Notes: generated by a model not told the origin, from the letters alone. 64,000 nucleotides of DNA from Pseudomonadales bacterium (GCA_020632265.1 JACKFW010000001.1:218981-282980); one strand, 5' to 3'; positions 1,503 to 24,642 are shown, counted from the stretch's first letter. Numbers and translations: made by a program.

Positions 1503-2204
1503 TTAATTTAAATCCAATATCTTCTCAACAATTCTTAAAATATTTTTTCTATCTACAAGAGTTATTTTGTGTTTTTTTGCAATTTTAATTATATTTTTTT
1601 CAAATGGTTCAAATAAAAATCCATAATTCACGGCCTTAAGCATTTCAATATCTCCCGAGCTATCACCAAAGCCAATCGAAAATACTTGAGTTTTTGAATT
1701 ATTTGAGATTTTTTTTACAATCTTAGCCTTTTCACCCTCATTCATCAACTGCTTAATCCTACCAGTAAATAGATTATCATTAACAAATAAATTAGATGAA
1801 TATGATTTAACGCCAAATATATTTGCGAAAGCGGAAACCACAGGTTCGATTGAAGCAGAAATAATGAAAATTTCGTAATTTTTCTGTTCAAGCAAAAAAA
1901 ACAATTTCGAAACATAAGAATAGGTACGTTTTTTTGTAAAAAAGTTATGTAACCAACTATCAACTTCAGATACTGATTTTCCAGCTAATACTTTCGCAGA
2001 CATTTCTATGGTTTTTTTAGAAGCTTGATTATGTGAAATCAATCTAAACTTATATCTAAATATTAAAACAAATGTCTCAATTAGTTCTATAAATCTAATT
2101 TTTCTGTTGGGGATTAAATACTCAAATAGAAATGACTCCATCGATGAGCCGTTATAAATAGTTTTATCCAAATCAAAAAAAGCGATTTTTTTCATAAATT
2201 GCAA
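1503..2204 (-). CDS. HAD-superfamily hydrolase, subfamily IB-like (phosphoserine-phosphatase-like fold).
   Basis: Motif I FFDLDKTI (DxDxT). C-terminal motif GFGDSSGDIEML (GDSxxD). Length 233 aa. Confidence 0.65.
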   Translation of the reverse strand: MQFMKKIAFFDLDKTIYNGSSMESFLFEYLIPNRKIRFIELIETFVLIFRYKFRLISHNQASKKTIEMSAKVLAGKSVSEVDSWLHNFFTKKRTYSYVSKLFFLLEQKNYEIFIISASIEPVVSAFANIFGVKSYSSNLFVNDNLFTGRIKQLMNEGEKAKIVKKISNNSKTQVFSIGFGDSSGDIEMLKAVNYGFLFEPFEKNIIKIAKKHKITLVDRKNILRIVEKILDLN

Positions 2205-2280
2205 AAAATATATAAATATCAGTTTTTACATTCATAACCCGATAATTCACTACATTCATAATACTTACAATAACAAAAAA

Positions 2281-2390
2281 ATACAAACATATTTATAAAA
2301 GCTCTTTGATAATTTATTCATTAATCTTTCAAATCTTTTGGTATTCTTATAATTTGAATCACTTTTCCATTAACTATAGCATTAGTTAAA
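2281..2390. repeat. Copy B of the approximately 110-bp direct repeat (see 987-1096).
   Basis: atttataaaagctctttgataatttattcattaatctttcaaatc...ttttccattaactatagcattagttaaattttta. Confidence 0.6.
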
Positions 2391-2395
2391 TTTTT
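2321..2395 (-). pseudogene. Remnant of a second DUF134 gene, C-terminal approximately 25 codons only. It is fused in frame to unrelated sequence in the ORF-track entry 2321..2506.
   Basis: The encoded ...KNLTNAIVNGKVIQIIRIPKDLKD matches the C-terminus ...KNLADAIVNGKAIQIVKLPID of the 1029..1316 protein. Similarity stops abruptly at about 2395. Confidence 0.45.
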
Positions 2396-2448
2396 AAAAG
2401 ACTTAATACTGTAATAAATATCTATTTGATATAAACTATTTTCTAACC

Positions 2449-4716
2449 ATGAAACAAAAAAAATCACTAATTTCTTTTTTAACTGCTCCTTTTTTAGTAG
2501 TTGCAATGATTTTTATTAGTTATATTTCTTTATTTCATAATGATGCAGGAAGCAATATTCAATATCTTCAATCAACTTTTGGAACAAACGCTGTAATTCT
2601 TATCAACGTTCTGTTATTAGTTTTAGTGATTCCTGTTTCTTTAACTTTAATGGAAATTATCACCGGTGAATTTGGCCTCGAGCGTTTCAAACGCATTGCA
2701 GCAATTAGTATTGGTATGACAACTTTGGGTTTTGCTACACTCCAATTTATCGGAGCAATTGCCACCTCATCCGCTGAAGGAGCAACGGTTGTAGTTGAAA
2801 TAGTCCAACAAATAGCTCATTTTTCTACTCAAGGAACTTTGGAACAATATGGTCTGGTGGGAATGCTAACATCAGATGCTTCTGGACCTTGGAATTCTAG
2901 CGTCTTTCCTCTTCTAATTTTAATAGTTTGGTTTATAAAAAGAAAAAAGGTTGGAATTGAGACAAAACAACTGCATATACCTATGATAGTTCAATGGATA
3001 CTTTATGCAGAACAATTTCTGTTTGGTTTGGATTTGCAATACACACTTTTAGAAATTATTCTCATGTTTATTACAGGAAGTATCTTTGTTTGGGGCATGA
3101 TTAGCTTCTTAGTTTCGATGTTTAGAGATGCTGAAAAAGCTGAAAAAAGCGCGGCTCAATTGGTAACTAAGACTGAAATTACTCAAAAAAAACAAAACCT
3201 TTACTCACGTTTTATCAATTTTCTTGCACATACTTCATTTAAAATTTTAACATTTAATCCATTGAATACACACGTAAATTCTGCAGACTCAAAAATAAAA
3301 AATAAAAAAGGAGGTTTTGGAAATATAGGTCGAGGCTATGTAATGGCTAATGCCCTTCAACTTACTATTGCCATGACCATAGCAATGTTTGCCCTGGTTT
3401 CTTCTATGCAGTTATTTGCAGTGCAAATTAGAATGAGTGATGCAGAAGCTGCTCTTTTTGGAACAGCAGGACTAACTAGCGCTCCAGAAGCTTTTGTAGC
3501 TTTTGCGGCTGGACCGTATATCAATGCACTGTTGCTTGTTGGCAGCAATATAATTGATGGCTGGATGTCAGCTATAGGTCAAATAATACTACTGGGTTAT
3601 GCTGAAATCGCAAGTAATGGAGCAATCGCTGCAATTCCACTACACCCAGCAATTAGATTCTTAACTTTTCTCTCATGGACTCAAGGCATGATTGTTTGGG
3701 CAACACTTGCGCTTTATGCTCATAAAATTAATTCAACCAAAAATAAAAAGCTTCTTAATTTTATCGTAATTGGAATGTTAATTTTTTCTATATTTTATTA
3801 TTTTGGAGGAGCATGGTACAGCGCACAAGCACTTGGATATGGTGCACAATATGCACAACAAAGCTATGTTTTCAGAGCTTTAGATAAAATTATTATGTTC
3901 TTAGCCAATCATCCAACCCAACAAATAGCACTCACGTTAAACATCTTTGGACTTGTCGGAATGTTTATTTTCTGGTCAGGTATTTCTACAAAATTATCAA
4001 ATCTTTTTTTTAATTCTGAAAAAGAAATTAATTCAAGCATTTCTGAACTACAATCAAAAATTAGCACCCGACTTAAAAGATTGGATCAACAAGTAATTAT
4101 TGTTTTAGATATAAGTGAAGATATGGATAAAGCTGGCAATTTCTTTAAGAATAAGTGGATTGATTTAGTATTCAGACAAGCCGCTGCACTTGGACTAATA
4201 TTGGACGATGATTCATATGTACCAGTTTATTCAACTCATGGAAAATTTGTTACAAAAATTAATCATCTTTTAACCAACAAAAATGCAGACGAATTTATTG
4301 AAAAATATATTGGTAGAGATACAGAAGGTATTATTGAATACGCTCCAGTCATCAAATCTATTTTCGAAGAATATCAAAACACACTAACTAAAGATCATGA
4401 CCCAATATTAGTACTTTTTATTACAGCTGGTGGTGGCACCGACACTCAAGAAACAATTGATACCTTTATTAAATTTGAAAAAACTCCAGTTTTTGTACAA
4501 TTTCTAGAAATTTTTGGTGAAAAAAGACATACAAACATTTCAAATCTTGAAAAGATCTCTAAACACCCTGGAAAATCGATTGATAATTCTGGATTATCTT
4601 CCCTACCTTTATATAGGATCACTGATGCAGGTCAAATTGTTGAAGAAGTGCTTAATAAATATCCTGAATATTTATCAAATGCATCCAAATTGGGAATAAC
4701 GAAAGAAAATACTTAA
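2449..4716 (+). CDS. Large polytopic membrane protein (755 aa) with a C-terminal cytoplasmic vWA-like domain.
   Basis: Many hydrophobic segments lie between residues 10-520. The C-terminal region QVIIVLDISEDMD ... ILVLFITAGGGTDTQET resembles a vWA fold, with a DxSxD-type MIDAS start and a hydrophobic strand ending in TDG-like residues. No close family recognised. Confidence 0.4.
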   Translation: MKQKKSLISFLTAPFLVVAMIFISYISLFHNDAGSNIQYLQSTFGTNAVILINVLLLVLVIPVSLTLMEIITGEFGLERFKRIAAISIGMTTLGFATLQFIGAIATSSAEGATVVVEIVQQIAHFSTQGTLEQYGLVGMLTSDASGPWNSSVFPLLILIVWFIKRKKVGIETKQLHIPMIVQWILYAEQFLFGLDLQYTLLEIILMFITGSIFVWGMISFLVSMFRDAEKAEKSAAQLVTKTEITQKKQNLYSRFINFLAHTSFKILTFNPLNTHVNSADSKIKNKKGGFGNIGRGYVMANALQLTIAMTIAMFALVSSMQLFAVQIRMSDAEAALFGTAGLTSAPEAFVAFAAGPYINALLLVGSNIIDGWMSAIGQIILLGYAEIASNGAIAAIPLHPAIRFLTFLSWTQGMIVWATLALYAHKINSTKNKKLLNFIVIGMLIFSIFYYFGGAWYSAQALGYGAQYAQQSYVFRALDKIIMFLANHPTQQIALTLNIFGLVGMFIFWSGISTKLSNLFFNSEKEINSSISELQSKISTRLKRLDQQVIIVLDISEDMDKAGNFFKNKWIDLVFRQAAALGLILDDDSYVPVYSTHGKFVTKINHLLTNKNADEFIEKYIGRDTEGIIEYAPVIKSIFEEYQNTLTKDHDPILVLFITAGGGTDTQETIDTFIKFEKTPVFVQFLEIFGEKRHTNISNLEKISKHPGKSIDNSGLSSLPLYRITDAGQIVEEVLNKYPEYLSNASKLGITKENT

Positions 4717-4814
4717 TTTAAAGTTTTCACAACCTTATTAAACATATTTTTACCAAAACTTTATTCCGTACATTTATTTGACATATTTCTCTCATTTATA
4801 TCACTTCATATATA

Positions 4815-4843
4815 TTGATAGGTAGAATTTTACCGTCTATGAT
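4815..4843 (+). promoter_or_regulatory. Sigma70-like promoter. TTGATA, N17, TATGAT, ending 6 nt before the ATG at 4850. Candidate leaderless transcript.
   Basis: ttgata ggtagaattttaccgtc tatgat agatat ATG. There is no Shine-Dalgarno sequence between the -10 hexamer and the start. Confidence 0.3.
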
Positions 4844-4849
4844 AGATAT

Positions 4850-7381
4850 ATGGCCAAAAATAAACAATTATTTGAAAATTATCTGACAATCGGAACAGAT
4901 GATATTTTAAATCAACTTAATTCAAATAAAAATGGTCTAACGAGCTTGAGTGCCCAGGAAAAACTTTTAAAATTTGGCCCAAATCTTTTAAAAATTAATA
5001 AGATTAGCTGGCTTAATATATTCATTAGACAATTCAAATCACCATTTATATATTTATTAATTGGAGCTGCATTACTCGCATTCTTTTTAAAAGAATTTAT
5101 CGATGGAATAATGATTTTTGCTTTTATCTTCATAAACTCAATTCTTGGATTTTTTCAAGAATTTCACTCTGAAAAAGCTTTAAGAGTTCTAAAAAAATAC
5201 ACTACTAAACATGCAAATGTTTTTAGAGATAATAAAGAAACAGTCATCTCAGTAGATCAACTCGTTCCAGGAGATATTGTCAAACTCCATCCTGGAGATA
5301 TTGTTCCTGCAGATTTAAGACTTATAGAAACACATAATTTACAAATCGACGAGTCAATACTCACAGGAGAATCGGAACCTAGTTATAAATCAACAAATGC
5401 TCTTTCTTCAAAATCCATACCGATTCACAAAGCTACTAACATTGCCTTTGCGTCTACTAATATTACGGGTGGCCACGGATTAGGATTAGTCTTTGCCACA
5501 GGTACTCTTTCCTATATTGGATCAATTGCCAAGCTTACTGTTGAAACACATTCAGAGAGTAACTTTGAAAAAGGAATGACTAAATTTAGCACATTTGTAC
5601 TTAAATTAGTTGGAGTGACACTTTCCCTAGTTATCTTAGCAAATCTATTGATCAAAGGTGATTCGTCAAGCCTAGGAGATTTAATTATTTTTGCAATCGC
5701 TCTTGCAACAGCAGTAGTTCCCGAAGCACTTCCGCTAGTGATTACATTTTCTTTATCTCGTGGAGCTGTCAAACTTGCCAAAAATAAAGTAGTAGTCAAG
5801 CGTCTTTCTGCCATTGAAGATTTGGGCAGTATCCAAGTCCTTTGCACAGACAAAACCGGTACAATCACCGAAAATAAATTGGAAGTTTCTGAAATATTTG
5901 GCGACGAAGATGAAGTAGTTTCACAAGCTATCATGGCAATCAGTCAAAAGAACTCTCTCAAAGATCCTTTTGATACTGCTTTTGAAACATTTTATAAAAA
6001 AGTTAGTAACCAAAATAAATCGTGGAGTATTGAACAAGAAATACCTTTTGATCCTGATAGGAAAAGAAATAGCGTACTTATTAAAAAAGATTCGAAAAAC
6101 ATGTTGATTGTGCGTGGTGCGGCCGAATCAATTTTATCTCATTTAAAAAATCATACTGACGAAAAATTAAAACATTGGATTTTAAAACAAGAAAATCAAG
6201 GTAAAAGAGTTATCATTATTGCTCATAAGTTTCTACCAAATCTAAAAGAATACTCTAAAAAAACTGAGGAAGGCGATTTATATTTAACAGGAGCTATTTC
6301 ATTACTTGATCCTCTCAAAAAAAGTGCATCTGAAGCTATTAAAAAAGCTCAAAAACTTGGGGTAGCAATTAAAATAATTACAGGTGATAGCCCAATAGTG
6401 GCTGGTTCAATTGGATTTCAAGTGGGATTAATTACAACTCCAACAGATGTAATAACTGCAGAAGAATTTTATAAATTGTCTGCTCTAGAACAAAAAAGAA
6501 AAGCTGCGTCATTCAATATTTTCGCGCGTTTCTCCCCACATGAAAAATTTCAATTAATCAACTTGCTCAAAGAACAATTCGAAGTTGGATACCTGGGTGA
6601 AGGCATTAATGATGCTCCGGCATTAAAAAGCGCAAATGTAGCCTTAGTTGTCCAAGGTGCAAGTGATATCGCAAGGGAATCAGCAGATATTATTTTATTA
6701 AACAAAAGCTTGAGAGTCATTATTGACGGAATTCAAGAAGGCAGAGAAGTTTTTGCCAATACAACCAAATATGTAAAAATGACCTTAGCATCAAATTTTG
6801 GCAATTTTTACGCAGTTGCTATCGTATCTTTATTGATAGATTACTTGCCAATGCTACCTATTCAAATACTGTTAGTTAATTTACTTTCAGACTTTCCTTT
6901 AATTGCTATTGCCACCGATTCAGTGGATATTGAAGAAATTAGAACTCCCGAATCATATAATTTGAAGGATTTTGCAATTATTGCAACTTTAATTGGAGTA
7001 GTTAGCACAGTTTTTGACTTTATCTATTTTTCAATATTTTACAGAATTTCACCAGAAGCTTTGCAAACAAATTGGTTTATGGGAAGCATATTAACCGAAC
7101 TAGCTTTATTATATTCACTCAGAACTAAATTGCCTTTTTTCAAAACAAAAGCTCCATCAAAAACTATACTTTGGATGACATTGACCGCAGCTCTAATTAC
7201 CGTAACTGTTCCATATACTACTTTTGGTCAAAATCTATTCAAGTTTATTCCTCCTACCATCAACCAAATGACTGTTGTGATCGTCGTAGCCATTTTATAT
7301 TTTATCGCTACCGAAATTACCAAAAACATCTATTACCAAAGTTCTAGAAAAAAAATTATTTCCAATAAAAGTCTGATATAA
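4850..7381 (+). CDS. P-type cation-transporting ATPase, MgtA/Ca-ATPase-like.
   Basis: Motifs LCTDKTGTITENK (phosphorylation site DKTGT), PEALPLVITFSLSRGAVKLAKNKVVVK and [19 protein letters not shown]. Length 843 aa with 10 predicted TM segments. Confidence 0.85.
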   Translation: MAKNKQLFENYLTIGTDDILNQLNSNKNGLTSLSAQEKLLKFGPNLLKINKISWLNIFIRQFKSPFIYLLIGAALLAFFLKEFIDGIMIFAFIFINSILGFFQEFHSEKALRVLKKYTTKHANVFRDNKETVISVDQLVPGDIVKLHPGDIVPADLRLIETHNLQIDESILTGESEPSYKSTNALSSKSIPIHKATNIAFASTNITGGHGLGLVFATGTLSYIGSIAKLTVETHSESNFEKGMTKFSTFVLKLVGVTLSLVILANLLIKGDSSSLGDLIIFAIALATAVVPEALPLVITFSLSRGAVKLAKNKVVVKRLSAIEDLGSIQVLCTDKTGTITENKLEVSEIFGDEDEVVSQAIMAISQKNSLKDPFDTAFETFYKKVSNQNKSWSIEQEIPFDPDRKRNSVLIKKDSKNMLIVRGAAESILSHLKNHTDEKLKHWILKQENQGKRVIIIAHKFLPNLKEYSKKTEEGDLYLTGAISLLDPLKKSASEAIKKAQKLGVAIKIITGDSPIVAGSIGFQVGLITTPTDVITAEEFYKLSALEQKRKAASFNIFARFSPHEKFQLINLLKEQFEVGYLGEGINDAPALKSANVALVVQGASDIARESADIILLNKSLRVIIDGIQEGREVFANTTKYVKMTLASNFGNFYAVAIVSLLIDYLPMLPIQILLVNLLSDFPLIAIATDSVDIEEIRTPESYNLKDFAIIATLIGVVSTVFDFIYFSIFYRISPEALQTNWFMGSILTELALLYSLRTKLPFFKTKAPSKTILWMTLTAALITVTVPYTTFGQNLFKFIPPTINQMTVVIVVAILYFIATEITKNIYYQSSRKKIISNKSLI

Positions 7382-7413
7382 TTATTTAGTATCTATATAT
7401 AAAGGAGATTGGC

Positions 7414-8648: not shown

Positions 8649-9338
8649 TTATTGTTCCATCATGCTTTTCACGTCTTCAGGAATTTGAAAGTTTTCATTT
8701 ACTTCTGGAATTCCATTCTCTTCTTGCATCTTAGAAAAACTTTCTTGCATTTGCGTTGCAAAATCGGTAAATACCACATTTGTTGGTGGAACAAACATCT
8801 CATCTCCAAATGAATCTTTTTGACAGTCAACTTTGTAACCTGTCTTTTCGTATTCAGCAATAGCTTCAGGATTATAAAAATCGGGATAATCTCTTGAATA
8901 GTCCTCTACCTGCTCAACGGTTTTAGCCATTTCCTCTTCAGTTGGAAGCGCAGTTTTAATACCTTCTAGTGATCCCTCCTGCCATACATATGTGTAATCT
9001 CCATCATTAATCATATAATTAAACGTTTCATCTTGAAAAAAGGTTGTCTTCATTTTAGAACCCTTCAGATAATATACTAGTTCTGAATTATCTGGATTGG
9101 TAATCAAACAACGCAAAGGTTGGTCTTTGGCAATGGCTTGAGCCATCTCTTGGGCTTCTTGTTGCAATTCTTGAGTCGGAGTTTTTGGAGAAAACTTATT
9201 TAAAGCAAACACTAATAAAAGAATTCCTAAAATTGCAATAATTGCAATATTGGTAGGTTTTTTCATAAAATCCCTTTCAATCATTATTTTCTTGATTCTA
9301 TGCAAAAGATGATCGAAAAGCAATAGAAAATTTTCCAT
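8649..9338 (-). CDS. Hypothetical N-terminally membrane-anchored extracytoplasmic acidic protein. The likely true start is the internal Met at 9266.
   Basis: MKKPTNIAIIAILGILLLVFAL is a signal or anchor, and the remainder is hydrophilic and D/E-rich. No family recognised. Confidence 0.35.
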   Translation of the reverse strand: MENFLLLFDHLLHRIKKIMIERDFMKKPTNIAIIAILGILLLVFALNKFSPKTPTQELQQEAQEMAQAIAKDQPLRCLITNPDNSELVYYLKGSKMKTTFFQDETFNYMINDGDYTYVWQEGSLEGIKTALPTEEEMAKTVEQVEDYSRDYPDFYNPEAIAEYEKTGYKVDCQKDSFGDEMFVPPTNVVFTDFATQMQESFSKMQEENGIPEVNENFQIPEDVKSMMEQ

Positions 9339-9828: not shown

Positions 9829-11520
9829 ATGTCTCTGCCTGACGAAAAATTAAAAAAACTCATCTTAAAAGCTGGAATCATTTCTAAAATTGATTTGCCT
9901 AAAATATCTCGATATGCAAAACGAGAAAACCTTACTTTAGAAGAAGCAATTATCAAAAAAGAGTTAATTACAGATTCTGATCTTGGCGTACTGATTGCTA
10001 GTAATTTAAAAATTCCTTTTGTTGATTTGTCTAAAATTGAACTAAATAATGAACTTTTATCAATAATTCCCGAAAGAATTGCCCATACCAGAAAAATAAT
10101 TGTTTTTGGAAGAGATGATAAAACTGTTAAAGTTGCCCTTTCTGATCCAGAAAATATTGAGTTATTAAAGATGATTGCTCATAAAACTGGTTTAGAGGTC
10201 TCGGTATATTATGCAACCAATAAAGATCTTGAAAAATCATTTATCCACTATAAAACTGATTATCAACAACTTTTTGAAAAACTTTTAAAAGAAGATAGAG
10301 CTCAAATAATTACAACAGTTGCGTATGATCCTCCAGTTAGAAAAATGGTTGATCTTTTGGTGGCCACTGCTTATCGAGAGAATGCCTCCGATATTCATAT
10401 AGAACCTAAAAAAAATAATTTTTTAATTAGATTTAGAATTGATGGAATTTTGCGTGACATGGCAACATTGCCCAAAGAAATTCATGAACGTGTTGTGACA
10501 AGAATAAAGGTCATGTCTAGATTAAGAATTGATGAACATTTTTCTTCTCAAGATGGAAAAATTTCAACTCAGGTGGATAATGAAAATTTGGATTTACGTA
10601 TCTCAATTCTTCCAATTGCAGATGGTGAAAAGATAGTCATACGTTTATTAGCTTCAAAATCCAATTTTTTCTCATTATCGGAACTTGGCATGAATGAGTC
10701 GGATCTAATGAAAGTTACTAAGGCATTCCAAAGTTCTTTTGGAATGATTATTTGCACGGGACCAACGGGATCTGGAAAAACAACAACAATTTATACGGTA
10801 ATCAAAAACATTAACACTAGAGACGTCAACATTACATCAATCGAAGACCCAATTGAATATAGAATTCAGGGTGCAAATCAAGTTCAAGTCAATGAAAAAA
10901 CAAACCTAACATTTGCAAATGGACTAAGATCTATCTTAAGACAAGATCCAGACAAAATTTTCGTCGGAGAAATACGAGATTCAGAAACTGCTAATATTGC
11001 TGTCAATGCTGCCCTAACAGGTCATTTAGTTCTTTCAACACTTCACACTAACAACGCAGCAACAGCCCTACCACGTCTTTTTGACATGGATGTTGAACCA
11101 TTTTTAGTTGTCTCCACAGTCAATTTAATTATCGCCCAGCGTCTAGTAAGAAAGATTTGTCAACACTGTAAAATTAGTAAAAAAACTCCAATGGCTGAGT
11201 TCTCAAAATTTTTCTCAAAAGAAATAATTAATAAATATTTTAAGTCAAATGGAAAAACTAATGAAATTGAAACATTCATGGGTAAAGGTTGCAGATTTTG
11301 TCATGACAGTGGATATTCTGGTCGAATTGGAATATACGAAATATTAGAAGTTAATGACAAAAATAAAGACTTAATTGCCTCAAAAGCTAGTGCTGAAGAC
11401 ATTGAGAATCAAGCAATAAAAGATGGTATGACGACAATGATTGACGACGGTGTTCAAAAAATTAAAGACGGTATGACGACAATGGAAGAAGTATTTAGAG
11501 TTACATCTGTTGCCAAATAA
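9829..11520 (+). CDS. pilB: Type IV pilus assembly ATPase PilB (GspE family).
   Basis: Walker A GPTGSGKTT, Asp box, His box LSTLHTNNAA. The N-terminal GSPII_E N-domain is about 150 aa. Length 563 aa. Confidence 0.9.
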   Translation: MSLPDEKLKKLILKAGIISKIDLPKISRYAKRENLTLEEAIIKKELITDSDLGVLIASNLKIPFVDLSKIELNNELLSIIPERIAHTRKIIVFGRDDKTVKVALSDPENIELLKMIAHKTGLEVSVYYATNKDLEKSFIHYKTDYQQLFEKLLKEDRAQIITTVAYDPPVRKMVDLLVATAYRENASDIHIEPKKNNFLIRFRIDGILRDMATLPKEIHERVVTRIKVMSRLRIDEHFSSQDGKISTQVDNENLDLRISILPIADGEKIVIRLLASKSNFFSLSELGMNESDLMKVTKAFQSSFGMIICTGPTGSGKTTTIYTVIKNINTRDVNITSIEDPIEYRIQGANQVQVNEKTNLTFANGLRSILRQDPDKIFVGEIRDSETANIAVNAALTGHLVLSTLHTNNAATALPRLFDMDVEPFLVVSTVNLIIAQRLVRKICQHCKISKKTPMAEFSKFFSKEIINKYFKSNGKTNEIETFMGKGCRFCHDSGYSGRIGIYEILEVNDKNKDLIASKASAEDIENQAIKDGMTTMIDDGVQKIKDGMTTMEEVFRVTSVAK

Positions 11521-11535
11521 CAAAGAAATTAAAAA

Positions 11536-12582
11536 ATGAAAAATCTAAGAATTTCTGGAAATGAGAAAATAAGTTTAATAGGTAATATGGCTACTATGCT
11601 TGGGGCTGGTATTCCCATGTTTGAAGCAGTTGAGGCATTGTTAGTTGATTCAAAAGGAGGGACAAAAAAAATTCTTGAGCAATTACAAGAGGATTTAACC
11701 GCCGGCCATCACATACATACAAATTTTGCTCGATTTCCGCGAGTTTTTGATAAGATCTCTGTAAATTTAATCAAAGCAGCTGAGGAGGCTGGAAAATTAG
11801 AGGTAATTCTCTTGGACCTTAGAAATAATCTCCAGAAAGAAATGGAATTTACCGATAGAATTAGGTCTGCTCTAACCTATCCAATACTAGTCTTAATTGT
11901 CTTTATTTTAGTAATATTCACTATGTTGATTGTGGTTATACCTAAGATTTCAACAGTATTTTCCCGTTTAAAGATGGATCTGCCTTTGCCTACGAAAATC
12001 TTAATTTTTGTATCTAATGCATTGCTAACATATTGGCCATTGATTTTAACTTTCTCAATAATCTCATTAGTGACAGTGTATTTTTTATACAGACAAAAAA
12101 AAGAGGTATTTTTATCTATGGTATTTTCTTTACCACTTGTTTCCAGACTTATGCAAGAAATCGATGTTACTCGCTTTACCAGAAGCATGCATCTTTTATT
12201 ATCATCTGGAATTCCATTCGTCTATGCTCTTGAACTTGCTCAAGAAGTGGTCTTAAAAAAGGAAGTATCTCAAATTATTAGAAGTGCCCGTGAACTTGCG
12301 CAGGAAGGAAAACAATTTTCTCAAGCTCTGAGAACTAAGGTAGGAGTCTTCCCAAGTGTTGCCGTAAAATTAATCGAAGTTGGTGAAAAAACTGGTCAAC
12401 TTGATAAATCTATGGGTGATATTTCAGAACAAATGGACTACACCGTCAGCAGAACTTTAGCATCTGTGACATCTTTGCTCGAACCACTCATGTTGGTTTT
12501 CGTAGGAATTTCTGTTGGGGCAATGATGATGGCTATTATCGCACCAATTTATGGATTAATCGGTCAAGTTGGTCAAAGATAA
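11536..12582 (+). CDS. pilC: Type IV pilus inner-membrane platform protein PilC (GspF family).
   Basis: Two GspF-type repeats with 3-4 TM segments. Immediately follows pilB. Confidence 0.8.
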   Translation: MKNLRISGNEKISLIGNMATMLGAGIPMFEAVEALLVDSKGGTKKILEQLQEDLTAGHHIHTNFARFPRVFDKISVNLIKAAEEAGKLEVILLDLRNNLQKEMEFTDRIRSALTYPILVLIVFILVIFTMLIVVIPKISTVFSRLKMDLPLPTKILIFVSNALLTYWPLILTFSIISLVTVYFLYRQKKEVFLSMVFSLPLVSRLMQEIDVTRFTRSMHLLLSSGIPFVYALELAQEVVLKKEVSQIIRSARELAQEGKQFSQALRTKVGVFPSVAVKLIEVGEKTGQLDKSMGDISEQMDYTVSRTLASVTSLLEPLMLVFVGISVGAMMMAIIAPIYGLIGQVGQR

Positions 12583-13108
12583 ATATTTATCATTACTAAG
12601 AAAAAGTATTATGGATAAAACCCAATTTTTAAAAAAATATAATGCTGGTTTTACCTTAATCGAATTAATTGTGGTAATTGCAGTTTTTTCAATTTTATTT
12701 TCAATTTCTTCAATTAGTTTGAGTGGATTAATTCCTAAAGCAAATTTTGTGACTCATTATGAATCCCTACTGTCAGATATAAAAGGACAACAACTTCGAT
12801 CAATGATAGGTGATACAAATGGCTCGGGTGATGGAAGTGCATATGGAATATATTTTGAAAGTAATCAATATACACTTTTCACTGGTCCTGCTTACAATCC
12901 AGTAGCAACTGATAATTATGTCATCGAACTTAGTCCTGGAATAAATATCACTGAAAATGTCCTTCCCTCTAGTAGTGTTGTTTTCTTACAAAATAGTGGT
13001 GAAATATCTGGATTTAATATTTTAACTTCTTCATTTAAATTAACTTCAGATTCGGGAGATGAAAAGCTAATCAATTTTAATGCGCTAGGGGTAGTGGTAT
13101 CAAATTAA
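12569..13108 (+). CDS. Minor pilin or pseudopilin (prepilin-type N-terminal cleavage/methylation domain).
   Basis: AGFTLIELIVVIAVFSILF has the G/FTLIE class III signal. The probable start is an internal Met that gives a shorter leader. Confidence 0.6.
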   Translation: MVKDKYLSLLRKSIMDKTQFLKKYNAGFTLIELIVVIAVFSILFSISSISLSGLIPKANFVTHYESLLSDIKGQQLRSMIGDTNGSGDGSAYGIYFESNQYTLFTGPAYNPVATDNYVIELSPGINITENVLPSSSVVFLQNSGEISGFNILTSSFKLTSDSGDEKLINFNALGVVVSN

Positions 13109-13109
13109 T

Positions 13110-15014
13110 ATGCAAAACCAAAAAGGACAATCAATTATTGAAGTATTACTAGCTTCAGCATTACTAATAATATTAATGCCAGCAATTTTTGCTGGATTAT
13201 TATCAACTCGCGAGGGTCGTGCACAACAACAAAAAAGAATTGATGCTTCATATTTTTTAAAAGAAACCCAAGAGGAAGTTAGAATTATTAGAGAGCGAGG
13301 TTGGTCACTTTTTGCCAACAATGGTGTATATCACCCAGAAAAGTCAGCTAATACGTGGATTTTATCTTCAGGTCCTGAAAGTGCTAATGGACTGATAAGA
13401 AGAGTTACAATTTCTGACGTATATCGTGATGAAACAGGAAAAATTAATGATGTGGGCGAAGTCGACAGCTCAACCAAATTAATCAATATTCTAGTAACCT
13501 GGACTGACCCATTTTATTCTAGCGTTGAAACATCATTTTATTTAACTAGGTATTTAGAAAATATTGCCTACATCGAAACATTAGAAAATGATTTTCTTCT
13601 TGGTGAAACTAACGGCACGACTGTTATTAATGAATCTGGAGGAGAAATTGTTCTAGGTGCGGGAGGAGAAGGCAACTGGTGCAATCCAAATGAATCAATA
13701 GTAGCTGAGCTAGATTTACCCAAAAATGGAGAAGCACTAGCTATTTCAGCAGTTGAAGGCCAAATCACAGCTGGCACCGGCGCAAATTCTTCTGGAGTTT
13801 CATTGGCAAATGTATCAATAAGTAATAGTAATCCTCCAATCGCCACGCTCGTTGGAACCTTTGATGGCTATAAAACTAACGATATTTTTTCAGAATTAGA
13901 TTATGCATATATTAGTACGGATACAAACAGCAAAGAAGTATCGATTATTAATATTAATAGCACTCCATATTCAGAGATAGGTTATGTTGATTTACCGGGA
14001 AATACAAATGCTGATGCTATTACAGTATCTGGACAAATTGGATATGTAGTTCAAGGAAGCATACTTTGGAACTTTGATTTAAGTAGTAAATCTGGATCAA
14101 GACCACTTTTAGATAATAATGGAGTCACGCTTGCTGGCAATGGAACCGAGGTTATTGTTGTCGGAAACTATGCTTATATTTCACTCATTGGAAATGTGGA
14201 AATGCAAATAGTTGATATTAGCAACTCTTCTAATCTAACCATCGTCGGTCAAGCCAACCTAAATGGAAATAATGGCCAGGACATTGCTGTCAATAGTACG
14301 GGTACCAGAGCTTATTTAATTACCAGTAAGTATGCTGGAAAATCAGAATTTTTTGTAATCGATACCACATCAAAAAATGGTGAACAACCGGTTTTAGGTT
14401 CATTAGATACGGGTGATATGAATCCAAAAGCAGTCATCATTGTTCCAGGTAATATTGCAATTGCAGCTGGACACGGCGGAGAACAATACCAAATTATTAA
14501 TATTTCACAGGATAATAATCCAAATTTGTGTGGAAGCTTAAACATTGGTAGTGATATTAATGATCTTGAAGCCATACTAGAAGCAGATGGCAATGCGTTT
14601 TCATATGTGTTAACAACAGATAGCTCTAGTGAACTTAAAATTATTGAGGGAGGCCCGGGAGGTCAATTTTCAACTGAAGGAACATTTGAATCTAATATAT
14701 TTGATGCAAACTACGATACAGTTTTCAATCGATTCGAAGCAAACACATATGAGCCTAGCTTAACAGCAATCAATTATCAATTTGCTGTTGCAGATGACAT
14801 CTCAGGCAGTTGTATTGGAGCCAATTATGTTTATGTCGGACCTGATGGTACTAATAGTACCTTTTTTTCTGGAACTGGCGCCATTCCTCTAGATAATGAT
14901 GGAATAGGATATGAAAATCCTGCTCAGTGTTTTCGCTATAAAGTATTTTTTACGTCTGAAAATAGCTTTACTTCGCCAATATTTGAAGATATAAGCATAA
15001 ATTATTCACCATGA
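13110..15014 (+). CDS. Large minor pilin (634 aa) with a prepilin N-terminus and an extended beta-propeller-like repeat domain (LVIVD-repeat-like).
   Basis: N-terminus KGQSIIEVLLASALLIIL has G at -1 and E at +5. Internal repeats include YAYISLIGNVEMQIVDISNSSNLTIVGQANL, AYLITSKYAGKSEFFVIDTTS and AVIIVPGNIAIAAGHGGEQYQIINIS. Two Cys near the C-terminus. Ends with TGA, which overlaps the next ATG. Confidence 0.5.
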   Translation: MQNQKGQSIIEVLLASALLIILMPAIFAGLLSTREGRAQQQKRIDASYFLKETQEEVRIIRERGWSLFANNGVYHPEKSANTWILSSGPESANGLIRRVTISDVYRDETGKINDVGEVDSSTKLINILVTWTDPFYSSVETSFYLTRYLENIAYIETLENDFLLGETNGTTVINESGGEIVLGAGGEGNWCNPNESIVAELDLPKNGEALAISAVEGQITAGTGANSSGVSLANVSISNSNPPIATLVGTFDGYKTNDIFSELDYAYISTDTNSKEVSIININSTPYSEIGYVDLPGNTNADAITVSGQIGYVVQGSILWNFDLSSKSGSRPLLDNNGVTLAGNGTEVIVVGNYAYISLIGNVEMQIVDISNSSNLTIVGQANLNGNNGQDIAVNSTGTRAYLITSKYAGKSEFFVIDTTSKNGEQPVLGSLDTGDMNPKAVIIVPGNIAIAAGHGGEQYQIINISQDNNPNLCGSLNIGSDINDLEAILEADGNAFSYVLTTDSSSELKIIEGGPGGQFSTEGTFESNIFDANYDTVFNRFEANTYEPSLTAINYQFAVADDISGSCIGANYVYVGPDGTNSTFFSGTGAIPLDNDGIGYENPAQCFRYKVFFTSENSFTSPIFEDISINYSP

Positions 15015-15559
15015 TGCATAACAAAAATCTAACTAAAAATATTTTTCAAAAAGGCTTTAACATTCGCAAAAGTTTTTCCCTTCAAAAAGGCTTCACTCTC
15101 GTGGAATTATTAATTTACATGGGTCTTTCAATGATTTTGCTGGCAATTATTTCCGGAATATTTATATCAGTACTAAGTGTTAGAAACGAATCAATCAAAT
15201 CTTCAAGTTTGGAAAGGGAAGGAAGATATATTTTAGCCCGCCTTTCCCACGATGTTTACTCTGCTCAAGATATTATTGAGCCAGCTACGTTGGGCGAAAG
15301 CTCAACAACACTTCAATTATTAGTTAATTCTGACCTTTTTACCTACTCAATAAATGATGATAAACTATATTTAACAAATACATCTGGAACTCATTTACTC
15401 AGTGGTGAATCTGTGAATGTAATGAGTTTTAATGTTACTAGATTAGGTAACGAAGGTGGTAAAAATGCTGTTGAAATTGAACTCACTACTCAAAGTCAAA
15501 ATGTTTCAGAGGGTAAAATAGAAAATCGTAATTACCAATTTATTTTAGCGTTAAGATGA
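15011..15559 (+). CDS. Minor pilin or pseudopilin.
   Basis: KGFTLVELLIYMGLSMILLAI prepilin signal. Overlaps its neighbours by 4 nt. Confidence 0.6.
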   Translation: MMHNKNLTKNIFQKGFNIRKSFSLQKGFTLVELLIYMGLSMILLAIISGIFISVLSVRNESIKSSSLEREGRYILARLSHDVYSAQDIIEPATLGESSTTLQLLVNSDLFTYSINDDKLYLTNTSGTHLLSGESVNVMSFNVTRLGNEGGKNAVEIELTTQSQNVSEGKIENRNYQFILALR

Positions 15560-15945
15560 AAAATAACCATACTAAATCATCATCTGGACATATTTTAATT
15601 ACTTTGTTAATTGTAATGGTGGTGGGAATGATAATTAGTACTGCAGCAATTTCTTGGGTAATTGACAATACAATTGGCAACTCACAAACTCACCAAGGAC
15701 TTACTGCTCTAACTGCTGCCGAAAGTGGTATTGAAAATGCTATGCTATTACTACTAAGAAATCCTGATTATTCTGGAGAGGTATTGGAAATTGCAGACGC
15801 AACAGTTACCGTTACTGTTTCTGGATCAGATGAGAAGACTATTATTTCTCAATCAATCGAAAACAATTACTCAAGAAAAATTGAAGTAACTGCGACATAT
15901 ATCAATAATATTTTAACTATCACTTCTTGGAAAGAATCGATTTAA
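15556..15945 (+). CDS. Minor pilin-like protein (PilX-like, atypical signal).
   Basis: SSGHILITLLIVMVVGMIISTAAI has G followed by a hydrophobic helix but no Glu at +5. Operon position is between the pilins. Confidence 0.4.
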   Translation: MKNNHTKSSSGHILITLLIVMVVGMIISTAAISWVIDNTIGNSQTHQGLTALTAAESGIENAMLLLLRNPDYSGEVLEIADATVTVTVSGSDEKTIISQSIENNYSRKIEVTATYINNILTITSWKESI

Positions 15946-15949
15946 AAAC

Positions 15950-17065
15950 ATGAATAAAAGCAGCCACCAAATTATCTTCATTTATAAAAATAAATTGTTT
16001 TTTTGTCATCCTGAAAAAAAAGAGAGCTTAGAATTTCCCTTAAGTAGCGATATTATTAAAGATCTGACTATTATTGATGAAGCAAAGCTAAAAAAATCCC
16101 TAGAATCGTTTTTAAGCAAAACTCAAATAACTGATAATGAAACATTGATTATCTTAAATAAGAATACTTATTTTAGAACTACAATTGAAAGTCCTGAGCT
16201 AAACCCGGAAAACAATAAAGTTATAATTGATCAATTTTCTGATTTAGTACCTTTTGATGATATCTTTGTCAAACAATTTAACCTGCATAAAAAGTTAGAA
16301 GTTGTCGCTATTAATAGAGAATTTTACGAACCAATTTTAAGTGTTTTGCAAAAATTAAAATTTAATATAACTATGATTCTTCCAGATCTAGTAGTAAAAG
16401 ACTATATCGGCGAAGCTAGTTGCACACCAGAAGAAAACAGTGCGTTATTAAAAGTTTTAAATAAGCTTGGTCAATATGATCTCCTTGGATCGGGTCACAT
16501 ATTATTAAGTAAAACTAAAATTGATCTTGCTCCAATCAAAGCAGAAAACAAACGTCTATATATTTTGGTTGGTCTTTTTGCAATTTTAATTATAATGTTA
16601 GTTGGAGTAATTATTTTTAACTCTAATAGAACCTATGGTCCTCCAATCATAGATAAAATTCCACCGGAATTAGAGACAATAATTGAAACGAAAAAACCTA
16701 GTATTGCATCTGACTCATCTCAAGCTTCCAATTCAGGTGAGTTAAGTGAAGGAATTTCCAGTAGCTCATCTGCTCTTTTAGATTTAGATCAATACACATT
16801 GAGAGTCTTAAATGGTTCGGGAATAAGCGGACAAGCAAACGTTGTCAAAAGTGATTTGCAAAAAGCTGGTTTTAAAAATATTGATATTGGAAATGCGCAA
16901 AAAATTTCCTCTAATAAAACTCAAATACTACTAAATCCTAAATTACCTAGCGAAGTCAGAGCGCTACTTTTAAATGTTTTAGAAAATTTTGGACAAGAAT
17001 ACACTATCCAAGAAAATAGTGAATTAAACTATGACGTAGTGATAACAACTACCTCAGCCAATTAA
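15950..17065 (+). CDS. Pilus-operon protein of three parts: an approximately 190-aa cytoplasmic domain (possibly PilM N-terminal-like), a single TM, and a C-terminal extracytoplasmic LytR_C-like domain.
   Basis: TM segment LYILVGLFAILIIMLVGVIIF. C-terminal YTLRVLNGSGISGQANVVKSDLQKAGFKNIDIGNAQK...TQILLNP...DVVITT matches the LytR_C consensus VxVLNGxGxxGlA...L...GF.v...gNA. Confidence 0.4.
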   Translation: MNKSSHQIIFIYKNKLFFCHPEKKESLEFPLSSDIIKDLTIIDEAKLKKSLESFLSKTQITDNETLIILNKNTYFRTTIESPELNPENNKVIIDQFSDLVPFDDIFVKQFNLHKKLEVVAINREFYEPILSVLQKLKFNITMILPDLVVKDYIGEASCTPEENSALLKVLNKLGQYDLLGSGHILLSKTKIDLAPIKAENKRLYILVGLFAILIIMLVGVIIFNSNRTYGPPIIDKIPPELETIIETKKPSIASDSSQASNSGELSEGISSSSSALLDLDQYTLRVLNGSGISGQANVVKSDLQKAGFKNIDIGNAQKISSNKTQILLNPKLPSEVRALLLNVLENFGQEYTIQENSELNYDVVITTTSAN

Positions 17066-17149
17066 CATATATCTACTTGACCTATAAACAAAAAATGATC
17101 TATTATTAATGTATATATAGTAAATTATTAATTATAAGAAGGTCAACTT

Positions 17150-17611
17150 ATGAAACTGCCATCATTAAAAAAACTAAATAAAGGTTTCACCCTTATTGAG
17201 CTATTAGTTGTTATAGGTATTCTAGCTATTTTATTAGCTATAGTTCTTATTGCTATTAATCCGGCTAGACAATTTGCTCAAGCAAATAATACTCAGCGTC
17301 GAAGTGATGTTAATGCTATCCTAAATGCAATACATCAATATGCAGCTGATAACTCGGGTGCACTTCCGGCAGGTATAACAACTACCGCTACAAATGTATC
17401 TGACACAGGTGCTGATATTTGTGCATTACTAGTTTCTGATTATTTAGCAGCATTGCCAGTTGATCCAACTGCCGGAGAACCCGTTGATGAGGCAGGATGT
17501 GCACTCGAATATGACACAGGATACACAGTCGTTACCAGTGCAACAAATAATAGAGTCACTGTAACTGCTCCATCAGCAGAGTTGGGTGATGTTATTTCTG
17601 CAACAAGATAA
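17150..17611 (+). CDS. pilA: Major type IV pilin (PilA-like).
   Basis: MKLPSLKKLNKGFTLIELLVVIGILAILLAIVLIAINP is a classic type IVa prepilin signal plus alpha1 helix. SD AAGAAGG lies upstream. Length 153 aa. Confidence 0.8.
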   Translation: MKLPSLKKLNKGFTLIELLVVIGILAILLAIVLIAINPARQFAQANNTQRRSDVNAILNAIHQYAADNSGALPAGITTTATNVSDTGADICALLVSDYLAALPVDPTAGEPVDEAGCALEYDTGYTVVTSATNNRVTVTAPSAELGDVISATR

Positions 17612-17640
17612 TATTATTAATTAATAAATTAATTAACATT

Positions 17641-17671
17641 AAAAAAGGACCAATTAAATTGGTCCTTTTTT
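17641..17671. terminator. Bidirectional rho-independent terminator between convergent pilA and the RRM-protein gene.
   Basis: aaaaaa GGACCAA ttaaa TTGGTCC tttttt. This is a 7-bp perfect stem and a 5-nt loop, flanked by an A-run and a T-run. Confidence 0.6.
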
Positions 17672-17715: not shown

Positions 17716-18066
17716 TTAATATCTACCGCCACCTCTATTGTTATTACCTTGGCTATCATTTCTTCTGTTGTTGTAACCACCAGAATTGTCTCTAGGAACT
17801 CTTGGTCTTGCAACGTTAACAACGATTTCTCTGCCTTCAAGTACGTAACCATTAAGTGCCTTTGTGGCAGCCTCTGCTTCTTCTACAGTATCGTAAGTAA
17901 TGAAAGCAATACCTTTTGATCGACCACTCATGCGGTCAACAATCAATACTCCATCAACAACTTTTCCATATTGAGAAAAGAGATTTACTATTGTTTCTTC
18001 CGTTGTACTAAACGGAATGCTCCCAACGAAAAGTTTCTTTGGGTTTTCTTGTGGTGCATCTTGCAT
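17716..18066 (-). CDS. RRM-domain RNA-binding protein with a Gly/Asn/Arg-rich C-terminal tail.
   Basis: RNP-1-like KGIAFITY and RNP-2-like KLFVGSIPF. The tail is ...GGYNNRRNDSQGNNNRGGGRY. SD AAAGGAGG lies upstream on the minus strand. Confidence 0.8.
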   Translation of the reverse strand: MQDAPQENPKKLFVGSIPFSTTEETIVNLFSQYGKVVDGVLIVDRMSGRSKGIAFITYDTVEEAEAATKALNGYVLEGREIVVNVARPRVPRDNSGGYNNRRNDSQGNNNRGGGRY

Positions 18067-18829: not shown

Positions 18830-19309
18830 TTACATTATTAAAATTTCATACTTAAGTTTTTTTGTAATATTTGGATCTTTATCACTTGGAAAGGTATCGT
18901 AAAACTCTAAAAATTTTTTGGACAATTTTCTTCCTTTAATAGTATGAGATCTCCTTTTTTCGTCTTCATAACTTCCTGAGAAATTTTCTGAGTCCTTGTA
19001 AAGAGTAAACTCTTCGTGTACATAAGTATGTCGGTGTTTAATAAATTCAAATTTCTCAAACATTGAATCATATCTGACTTTTAAGAAACATATATAATCC
19101 TTACCCACTTGAAAATCCAATTCTCTTGAGATTTGATTATTAGAAACTGTACGAACTAAATGATATTTATAATAAATGAAGCTTCCGCTTGAAGAATAAA
19201 TAGTTGTTTTAATATCAAAAGTTTGTCCTCCAAAACTGAGTGGATTTTCCAAAATACTTTCGGTCAAATAACTAATTAATGTAAGAACTGCTCCTGTATG
19301 AGGTTGCAT
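18830..19309 (-). CDS. Hypothetical protein, last gene of the putative copper operon.
   Basis: 159-aa ORF. No family recognised. Confidence 0.3.
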   Translation of the reverse strand: MQPHTGAVLTLISYLTESILENPLSFGGQTFDIKTTIYSSSGSFIYYKYHLVRTVSNNQISRELDFQVGKDYICFLKVRYDSMFEKFEFIKHRHTYVHEEFTLYKDSENFSGSYEDEKRRSHTIKGRKLSKKFLEFYDTFPSDKDPNITKKLKYEILIM

Positions 19310-23946: not shown

Positions 23947-24642
23947 CTATTTATAAGGCTTGGCAACTACAATGAAAAGACGAGTTCTAATTAAATTTTT
24001 TGATTTATAAATGATTAATGTATTTTCTTCCTTAGCAATTACATGTGGTAAATACTGAGCATCAGTTTCTCTTGTTTCTATAACGTGATATTTGTAAATT
24101 CCATTGTTATTTCCAGTTAGAATTATTTCGGTTCCAATTTCAATTTCTTCAATGTTTTTAATGATATCTTTAGAACTCAAGTCAGCAATAACTATTGGTT
24201 TATTTTGACCCAAATACCCAGATCCTTTTAGATGGATCAATTCATTTGAAATAACATTTTCAACAAAACTTGTTAGTTCATCACTTTTAACGCTAGCATA
24301 TAAATCTAATGCAGGAATTTTAATTTCTTTAGCTTGTACTCCTTCAATATTTGCGTTCATTAAAATTGGAAATGCCTGAAGTGCGTCTGGTCTTTGAGTT
24401 ACTATTATGCTTAATCCTAATCCAATTCCAAGACCAACGCCACTTACCACCAATTTTCTCTTTTCAGCCAATTTATCAAAAAACGAAAAAATTGGAAAAA
24501 ATAAAATAAGAATCAACTTCATTAAAACTTTAGCAATATTTTTGGGCGAAAATAAAGAAATGCTTGGACAAATTTCAAAAATTATGTCACCAGTTCTATC
24601 CTTTTTTATTTTAAGAAGATTTCTTGAATTATATATAATCAT
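23947..24642 (-). CDS. Membrane-anchored sortase-fold-like protein lacking the catalytic His and Cys (possible pseudo-sortase).
   Basis: The by-eye alignment to the class A sortase core rests on three segments. EIKIPALDLY resembles the beta-strand IEIPDADI. IVIADLSS sits where IAGHT carries the catalytic His. TLIIYKS sits where TLITC carries the catalytic Cys. RTRLFIVVA retains the conserved Arg. The N-terminus has hydrophobic anchor segments. Confidence 0.3.
   Translation of the reverse strand: MIIYNSRNLLKIKKDRTGDIIFEICPSISLFSPKNIAKVLMKLILILFFPIFSFFDKLAEKRKLVVSGVGLGIGLGLSIIVTQRPDALQAFPILMNANIEGVQAKEIKIPALDLYASVKSDELTSFVENVISNELIHLKGSGYLGQNKPIVIADLSSKDIIKNIEEIEIGTEIILTGNNNGIYKYHVIETRETDAQYLPHVIAKEENTLIIYKSKNLIRTRLFIVVAKPYK

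Follow-up and report, generated by a model that had tools for sequence, protein, structure and literature searches.

The window analysed here, a 64,000-nucleotide (nt) stretch deposited under the name Pseudomonadales bacterium (GCA_020632265.1 JACKFW010000001.1:218981-282980), carries a block of eight near-abutting open reading frames (ORFs) at 9829-17611, all on the plus strand. We are confident that the eight genes form the core operon for assembly of a monoderm-type type IV pilus (T4P; a type IV filament) from the Microgenomates, a lineage within the candidate phyla radiation (CPR/Patescibacteria). ORF calling placed all eight genes at the coordinates given by a first-pass annotation of the window made from its sequence, and searches with Pfam and TIGRFAM models together with motif scans bore out both their identities and their order. 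The features are as follows, with an arrow marking the predicted prepilin cleavage site and protein lengths in amino acids (aa).

9829-11520, plus strand: pilB, pilus extension ATPase, 563 aa, with an N-terminal MshEN/T2SSE_N-type domain
11536-12582, plus strand: pilC, polytopic platform protein, 348 aa
12611-13108, plus strand: minor pilin 1, 165 aa counted from the ATG, bearing a canonical class III signal (...YNAG↓FTLIELIVV)
13110-15014, plus strand: modular minor pilin ('big pilin'), 634 aa, with the leader MQNQKG↓QSIIEVLL
15011-15559, plus strand: minor pilin 3, 182 aa, with a long leader (...SLQKG↓FTLVELLIYM)
15556-15945, plus strand: PilX/GspK/ComGG-like minor pilin, 129 aa, lacking Glu5 (...KSSSG↓HILITLLIV)
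15950-17065, plus strand: GspL/PilM-like bitopic assembly protein, 371 aa, with a LytR_C domain and one transmembrane (TM) helix
17077-17106, plus strand: promoter-like TTGACC-18-TATTAT before pilA, a consensus match only
17150-17611, plus strand: pilA, major pilin, 153 aa (MKLPSLKKLNKG↓FTLIELLVVIG), with two Cys (91 and 117) and a GspG-like core
17641-17671, unstranded: intrinsic terminator hairpin from the terminator scan, AAAAAAGGACCAAtt(a)aaTTGGTCCTTTTTT, lying between convergent genes

A genome collection held 183 stretches encoding a relative of the big pilin, of which 80 loci were fetched and their genes called. The order pilB-pilC-pilin-big pilin-pilin-PilX-like-GspL-like-pilA recurred in nearly all 80, which belong to different Microgenomates species; the cassette is therefore standard for the lineage. 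We conclude that the eight-gene operon is a standard, highly conserved Microgenomates cassette, and the earlier description of its minor-pilin set as unusually elaborate is wrong, as the identical layout recurs across the clade. Four minor pilins are also the canonical core set (GspH/I/J/K or FimU/PilV/W/X) of the priming complexes of T4P and type II secretion systems (T2SSs). Homologues of the 634-aa pilin occur at full length and about 50% identity in Levy-, Ames-, Gottesman-, Roizman-, Woese- and Pacebacteria, all Microgenomates of the CPR. The identical protein is found on a 1,082,363-bp NCBI contig of a metagenome-assembled genome (MAG) labelled 'Pseudomonadales bacterium', and again in the Logan assembly of SRR12358675. 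Together, these relatives and the contig uphold the small-genome CPR origin proposed at first pass. Many MAG records with the Microgenomates cassette (loci L004, L011, L013, L014, L018 and others) bear the title 'uncultured Gammaproteobacteria bacterium' or 'Pseudomonadales bacterium', which looks like a taxonomic mislabel; the MAG with the window's own proteins (P0001) is among them.

All eight genes are under purifying selection. Median identity between the window proteins and their relatives was 61% for PilA (over its whole length, at 96% coverage), 53% for PilB, 51% for PilC, 42% for the PilX-like pilin, 35% for minor pilin 1, 34% for minor pilin 3 and 24% for the GspL-like protein. The big pilin reached 48% over its full length and 54% in its propeller part, values that may be inflated by the choice of loci through this same protein. 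The accessory proteins had been expected to be divergent, which holds for the 371-aa protein and fails for the 634-aa pilin, whose conservation comes near that of PilB. PilA ranks above PilB across the Microgenomates, the reverse of the usual pattern for a surface pilin. A decaying or silent remnant with no function, to which PilD and PilT not being found locally and the lack of an obvious Shine-Dalgarno sequence at most of the eight genes might point, is effectively excluded because the syntenic cassette is conserved across the clade, at 24-61% median identity over 80 species-level genomes. All eight ORFs are moreover intact, all catalytic motifs are present, and the big pilin keeps four invariant Cys along with many other invariant residues.

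Spacing within the operon is tight. A 15-nt gap separates pilB from pilC, a single nucleotide lies between minor pilin 1 and the 634-aa pilin gene, 4-nt overlaps join the latter to minor pilin 3 and minor pilin 3 to the PilX-like gene, and 4 nt lie between the PilX-like and GspL-like genes. The sole exception is an 84-nt gap before pilA. The remaining junction, between pilC and minor pilin 1, depends on the start codon: a TTG at 12569 gives a 14-nt overlap and a product of 179 aa, whereas the ATG at 12611, chosen when the genes of the identical public contig were called independently, leaves a 28-nt gap.

The motor and platform proteins were recognized with high significance (E values in brackets here and below). 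PilB matched the Pfam families T2SSE (4.2e-127) and MshEN (1.6e-12), and the TIGR02538 model aligned over positions 2-563 of its 564 (4e-155). The GspE model followed closely (1.8e-153), so that PilB scores only marginally higher as a type IVa pilus (T4aP) PilB than as GspE, with both scores under the equivalog cut-offs. Walker A (GPTGSGKT), Asp box, Walker B and His box are all present, as in the hexameric PilB/GspE-family ATPases of type IV filaments, and two CxxC motifs form a tetracysteine set (CQHC...CRFC). PilC matched T2SSF in two stretches (1.3e-47), identifying it as a type IV filament platform protein; GspF (3e-71) and Thermus-type PilC (1.7e-59) models also matched, and the protein has three hydrophobic segments. 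Its 348 aa compare with a median of 350 aa in relatives, and PilC is thus not truncated but of the usual short length. Frameshift or decay of pilB or pilC was rejected given the full-length PilB model alignment, the complete motifs and the length of PilC.

ComGA and ComGB models also matched PilB and PilC, and this bears on whether the operon might instead encode a competence (Com-type) pseudopilus with DNA uptake as its main job, and not an adhesive or motile pilus. The ComGA match covered only residues 177-441, with a score of 255.8 against a cut-off of 300, on an ATPase that is of the full-length, 563-aa PilB/GspE type with an MshEN domain. The operon has neither the short ComGA-type ATPase nor the major pilin directly after comGB that mark comG operons; pilA is the last gene, unlike in the comGA-GG order. 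The MshEN region (9829-10000), inspected by eye, seems to be without the Arg and Gly of the c-di-GMP-binding motif, RLGxx(L/V/I)(L/V/I)xxG; control of PilB by c-di-GMP therefore seems unlikely.

Downstream of the motor genes, the motif scan gave three canonical prepilins (minor pilin 1, minor pilin 3 and PilA) with the cleavage site G↓FTL(I/V)E. These three, and the 634-aa pilin with its non-canonical KG↓QSIIE, have the features of a class III signal: Gly at -1, a hydrophobic α1N and Glu at +5. A fifth pilin-type N terminus, the G↓HILIT of the PilX-like protein, has no Glu5, as in GspK/PilX-type subunits. The first-pass annotation had staked its reading on class III signals and on unbroken pilB and pilC, and both are present. 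Minor pilin 1, found in 80/80 related loci, matched N_methyl (1.5e-8) and TIGR02532 (5e-8), with weak ComGD and GspH matches. Minor pilin 3, found in 78/80, matched N_methyl (1.1e-6), with weak ComGD, ComGF and PpdC-type matches. The window copy of the PilX-like pilin had no Pfam match. At the family level, PilX_N was matched by 15/46 orthologues (best 3.3e-5), and the N terminus follows a conserved G↓Q(A/T)L(I/V)xLL in which position +5 is T, L or M and never E among the 40 orthologues shown, which together support the PilX-like call.

PilA matched N_methyl (3.9e-9) and, over residues 11-107, GspG (5.8e-10); its PDB matches are Geobacter, Thermus and GspG pilins, and at least 6938 homologues were found, many at 66-90% identity. 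One related locus (L041:12052-13098) has two tandem pilA genes. Weak matches of ComGC, ComGD, ComGE and ComGF models to the pilins are a further point on the side of a competence pseudopilus. Assignment of the individual minor pilins to H, I, J or K was not possible from structure-profile searches: the shared α1 helix was all that linked the family profiles of minor pilins 1 and 3 to solved structures, and the profile of the PilX-like pilin gave no significant match.

The largest pilin combines several modules. LVIVD (8e-7) and, weakly, N_methyl matched the window copy, LVIVD was found in 55/55 family members and the N_methyl model reached 22/55, and G6, Q7 and E11 are nearly invariant in the family. 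An AlphaFold2 model built on a 55-sequence alignment (predicted local distance difference test, pLDDT, 88.8) comprises a 59-residue α1 helix (5-63), a pilin β-sheet head (72-146), a seven-bladed LVIVD β-propeller (~190-515) and a C-terminal β-sandwich (~520-634). With an N-terminal pilin module followed by unrelated folded modules, the protein as predicted counts as a modular pilin as defined by Raynaud et al. 2021 (PMC8179133). A modular pilin of this kind is foreign to classical comG operons and argues against a competence pseudopilus, though ComZ of Thermus is a known DNA-binding modular pilin (PMC8179133). Kinship of the propeller with PilY1 was rejected: the top fold matches are generic seven-bladed WD40/YVTN-type propellers and phage nozzle proteins, PilY1 is absent among the top fold matches listed, and no PilY1-type domain was matched by Pfam on this pilin. 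Elsewhere in the clade, one locus has a tandem duplicate of the big propeller pilin (L057:7983-11896), and other genomes encode a longer form of ~1020 aa (P0009, P0013, P0028 and others).

The operon has no separate PilM, PilN or PilO and encodes instead one bitopic protein with a cytoplasmic domain of predicted PilM/GspL fold. This 371-aa protein matched LytR_C in Pfam (1.4e-8) and had no Pfam match to GspL or PilM. In its AlphaFold2 model (60-sequence alignment, pLDDT 86.9), a confidently predicted cytoplasmic domain (1-176) is followed by a TM helix (~201-227), from which a Ser-rich, disordered linker runs to an extracytoplasmic LytR_C domain (283-367). Fold matching of the model assigned the cytoplasmic domain to the GspL/PilM fold; the family profile reached PilM in the PDB weakly (E 0.09-0.2), and in locus L068 a Pfam PilM_2 protein fills the same slot. 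LytR_C is present in 28/73 syntenic orthologues and absent in 45/73, and the N-domain family comprises 1357 representatives at 50% clustering; a cluster look-up of the family gave no organism names. We take the protein to be GspL-like, with a predicted PilM-like domain tethered by a TM helix; it probably docks PilB at the membrane, standing in for PilM/N/O.

Pfam scans took in 46 window ORFs in all, which are most of those that reach 110 aa. The 38 beyond the operon included no PilT, A24 prepilin peptidase, secretin or PilM/N/O, in agreement with the earlier statement that secretin, pilT and prepilin peptidase are missing from the window. Calling the operon 'complete' was nevertheless too strong, because PilD, which is essential, and PilT are not in the window. 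The window also encodes a sortase, FemAB, a Mur ligase and a protein O-mannosyltransferase, which fit a monoderm; the monoderm context that had been suggested is upheld.

These data also bear on a T2SS-like pseudopilus, a piston that would move proteins through the monoderm cell wall or S-layer. GspF, GspG and GspL score slightly better than their T4P counterparts, yet the differences are small and PilB is marginally better as a T4aP PilB than as GspE. Neither the secretin GspD nor GspC or GspM was found in the operon or the other scanned ORFs, and the organism has no outer membrane through which proteins would have to pass. A buried piston would have little use for an adhesin-like propeller pilin that is exposed, and pili are, by report, widespread among the CPR (PMC7143001). 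We consider such a piston improbable.

Several points weigh against the assignment to a T4P. Neither PilD for prepilin processing nor PilT for retraction was found in the scanned window ORFs or near the operons of relatives: no second PilB-like (T2SSE-family) ATPase occurred in the scanned ORFs or within ~8 kb in the 80 related loci, and no recurrent PilD-candidate gene family in their ~8-kb flanks. The putative H/I/J/K roles of the minor pilins are read from gene order and the missing Glu5, and the globular domains match no solved structure by sequence. Although the site upstream of pilA matches the consensus at 10/12 positions, we make no firm promoter claim because promoter-like sites in the region are not enriched over shuffled sequence (50 versus 40.7 ± 7.1). 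The pilus is, finally, known here from genes and predicted models.

A mechanism can be outlined for the T4P reading by placing the components, folds and conservation described above within established T4P/T2SS biology. PilD, encoded elsewhere, would cleave the pilins after the conserved Gly. The GspL/PilM-like protein would hold the PilB hexamer at the membrane beside PilC, one polypeptide thereby replacing PilM/N/O, and its optional external LytR_C domain may contact the cell wall. The four minor pilins would form a priming complex that ends at the pilus tip, with the Glu5-less PilX-like subunit as its cap and the 634-aa pilin exposing its β-propeller and β-sandwich as a ligand-binding module. 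Beneath this complex, PilB would polymerise the abundant GspG-like PilA, whose gene has a good ribosome-binding site (AAGAAGG, a few bases 5′ of the ATG) and a strong terminator after it, and may have its own promoter.

This pilus would most likely attach the cell to host cells or to surfaces, capture DNA, or do both, and a common ligand is somewhat favoured by how strongly the exposed subunits are conserved. A competence pseudopilus draws on the same conservation: PilA at 61% and the propeller pilin at 48% identity fit a universal ligand such as DNA better than host-specific receptors. PilT, moreover, was not found in or near the operon, as in comG operons, and CPR bacteria are thought to scavenge nucleotides (general background; PMC7143001). 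Set against this, no ComEA, ComEC or DprA was found in the scanned window ORFs, and the propeller-pilin system of the saccharibacterium TM7x was without effect on competence (PMC11623550). DNA uptake and adhesive roles are not mutually exclusive, and we regard a dedicated competence machine as possible but unlikely.

A bolder version of the T4P reading would make the Microgenomates cassette a distinct, streamlined type IV filament subtype, in which the single GspL-like protein, in some cases with a LytR_C domain touching the wall, replaces PilM/N/O, a PilY1-type propeller function is fused to a core minor pilin and the filament surface is as conserved as the motor. We advance this only tentatively and think it rather doubtful. 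If true, such surface conservation would speak for a universal ligand, such as DNA or a cell-wall glycan shared by many cells, and not for host-specific receptors; capturing nutrients or DNA would then be the main task of the pilus, and the GspL-like component might bear on the divergence of T2SS and T4P.

The 3′ boundary of the operon is well marked. The terminator scan resolved the hairpin at 17641-17671 as AAAAAAGGACCAA-TTAAA-TTGGTCCTTTTTT, and 0/200 shuffles were as stable as the 104-nt intergenic RNA, which has a folding energy of -24 kcal/mol (z = -4.85). These results sustain the strong terminator noted at first pass. An A-run lies upstream of the hairpin and a T-run downstream, and the convergent gene, which encodes an RRM RNA-binding protein, has its end at 17716; termination in both directions is therefore plausible. 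The same scan found a perfect 7-bp palindromic hairpin, CCAGCAATTTTTGCTGG (13179-13195), terminator-like on both strands; it falls within the α1-helix coding region, at the 5′ end of the gene for the 634-aa pilin. Scans of the window for tRNAs and Rfam families gave no match.

The surroundings of the operon vary across the clade. Directly 5′ of pilB (for example, at L081:4421-4798 and L022:3913-4308), relatives carry a CheY-like response regulator in 37/80 loci and an Hpt protein in 20/80, and histidine kinases lie nearby in 15 loci, a pattern that points to regulation of the pilus by two-component systems across much of the clade. The window has a divergent MscL gene in this position instead of a CheY-like or Hpt gene. 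Five loci (L047, L052, L056, L062 and L076; ~2000-7400) have a ~5-kb insert between pilC and the first minor pilin, whose genes encode a ThiF-like protein, a 7TM-GAF histidine kinase and further products of unknown function; a sixth (L038) has a shorter insert. Near the operon, the window encodes a 755-aa protein with a C-terminal vWA-TerF-like domain (2449-4716, plus strand) and a sortase-domain protein whose match is weak, just under the Pfam cut-off (23947-24642, minus strand), and these two may provide further cell-surface functions. The ORFs flanking the operon, of 229 aa (8649-9338, minus strand) and 159 aa (18830-19309, minus strand), matched no Pfam family at E ≤ 1e-4.

Type IV pili are leading candidates for host attachment and DNA uptake by ultrasmall CPR bacteria, and to our knowledge experimental work on CPR type IV pili has so far been done for Saccharibacteria only. 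The two pili of Nanosynbacter lyticus TM7x (T4P-1 and T4P-2) resemble the present one as CPR monoderm T4P in which several minor pilins accompany PilB, PilC and a small major pilin, and the T4P-2 locus likewise lacks a retraction ATPase (PMC11623550). The closest described analogue of the 634-aa pilin, likened by description and not by sequence, is TM7x PilX2, a minor pilin that carries a heptabladed propeller, has a non-canonical signal peptide and is required for efficient host binding (PMC11623550). TM7x pilins are reported to be poorly conserved outside the Saccharibacteria (PMC11623550), whereas PilA and the big pilin are highly conserved within the Microgenomates; if this conservation of exposed pilins reflects a common ligand, it would argue against host-specific recognition by this pilus. 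The TM7x propeller is of the RCC1 type, in contrast to the LVIVD type with an extra β-sandwich found here. TM7x also has separate PilM, PilN and PilO, in contrast to the single GspL/PilM-like bitopic protein.

Among other monoderms, the Streptococcus sanguinis locus encodes PilD, PilT and PilM/N/O. PilB and PilC of its T4aP are, like the 634-aa protein, pilin modules with grafted functional modules predicted to be exposed at the tip; their modules are vWA or lectin domains, as opposed to the propeller and sandwich seen here (PMC8179133). The PilY1/PilC tip adhesins of diderm T4aP are alike in pairing a large β-propeller with four core minor pilins, presumably at the tip (general background; PMC8179133), but they place a C-terminal propeller domain on a non-pilin protein, whereas the 634-aa protein is itself a pilin. 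The 371-aa protein has no significant sequence match to GspL (4pht, 5tkw) or PilM (2ych, 3jc8, 5eou), and its external domain is LytR_C in place of the ferredoxin-like domain of GspL or PilN. We take IPR013211 to be the LVIVD repeat. CPR pilins with IPR013211 repeats are already listed in an InterPro survey (PMC8179133). The complete genome of Microgenomates bacterium Ch65, a member of the same superphylum, has T4P loci with PilA, minor pilins, PilB, PilC and PilM reported, again with no secretin (PMC7143001). Ch65 keeps PilD and PilT in the same single locus (PMC7143001), in contrast to the window and the 80 relatives, with no second PilB-like ATPase or recurrent PilD candidate nearby.

Searches of the literature for LytR_C with pili, and for LVIVD with pilins, returned nothing relevant. 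Three features were not found described in the searchable literature, each a modest variant: the GspL-like single-protein substitute with optional LytR_C, the LVIVD-propeller-plus-sandwich pilin family and the unusually strong conservation of exposed pilins. The operon belongs to a known kind of system, because T4P loci are documented in CPR bacteria including Microgenomates (PMC7143001) and modular and propeller pilins have been described. It therefore adds no new kind of system; it defines a conserved eight-gene Microgenomates cassette with two experimentally approachable parts, a very conserved β-propeller pilin that is a likely ligand binder and a GspL/PilM-like protein that would substitute singly for PilMNO.

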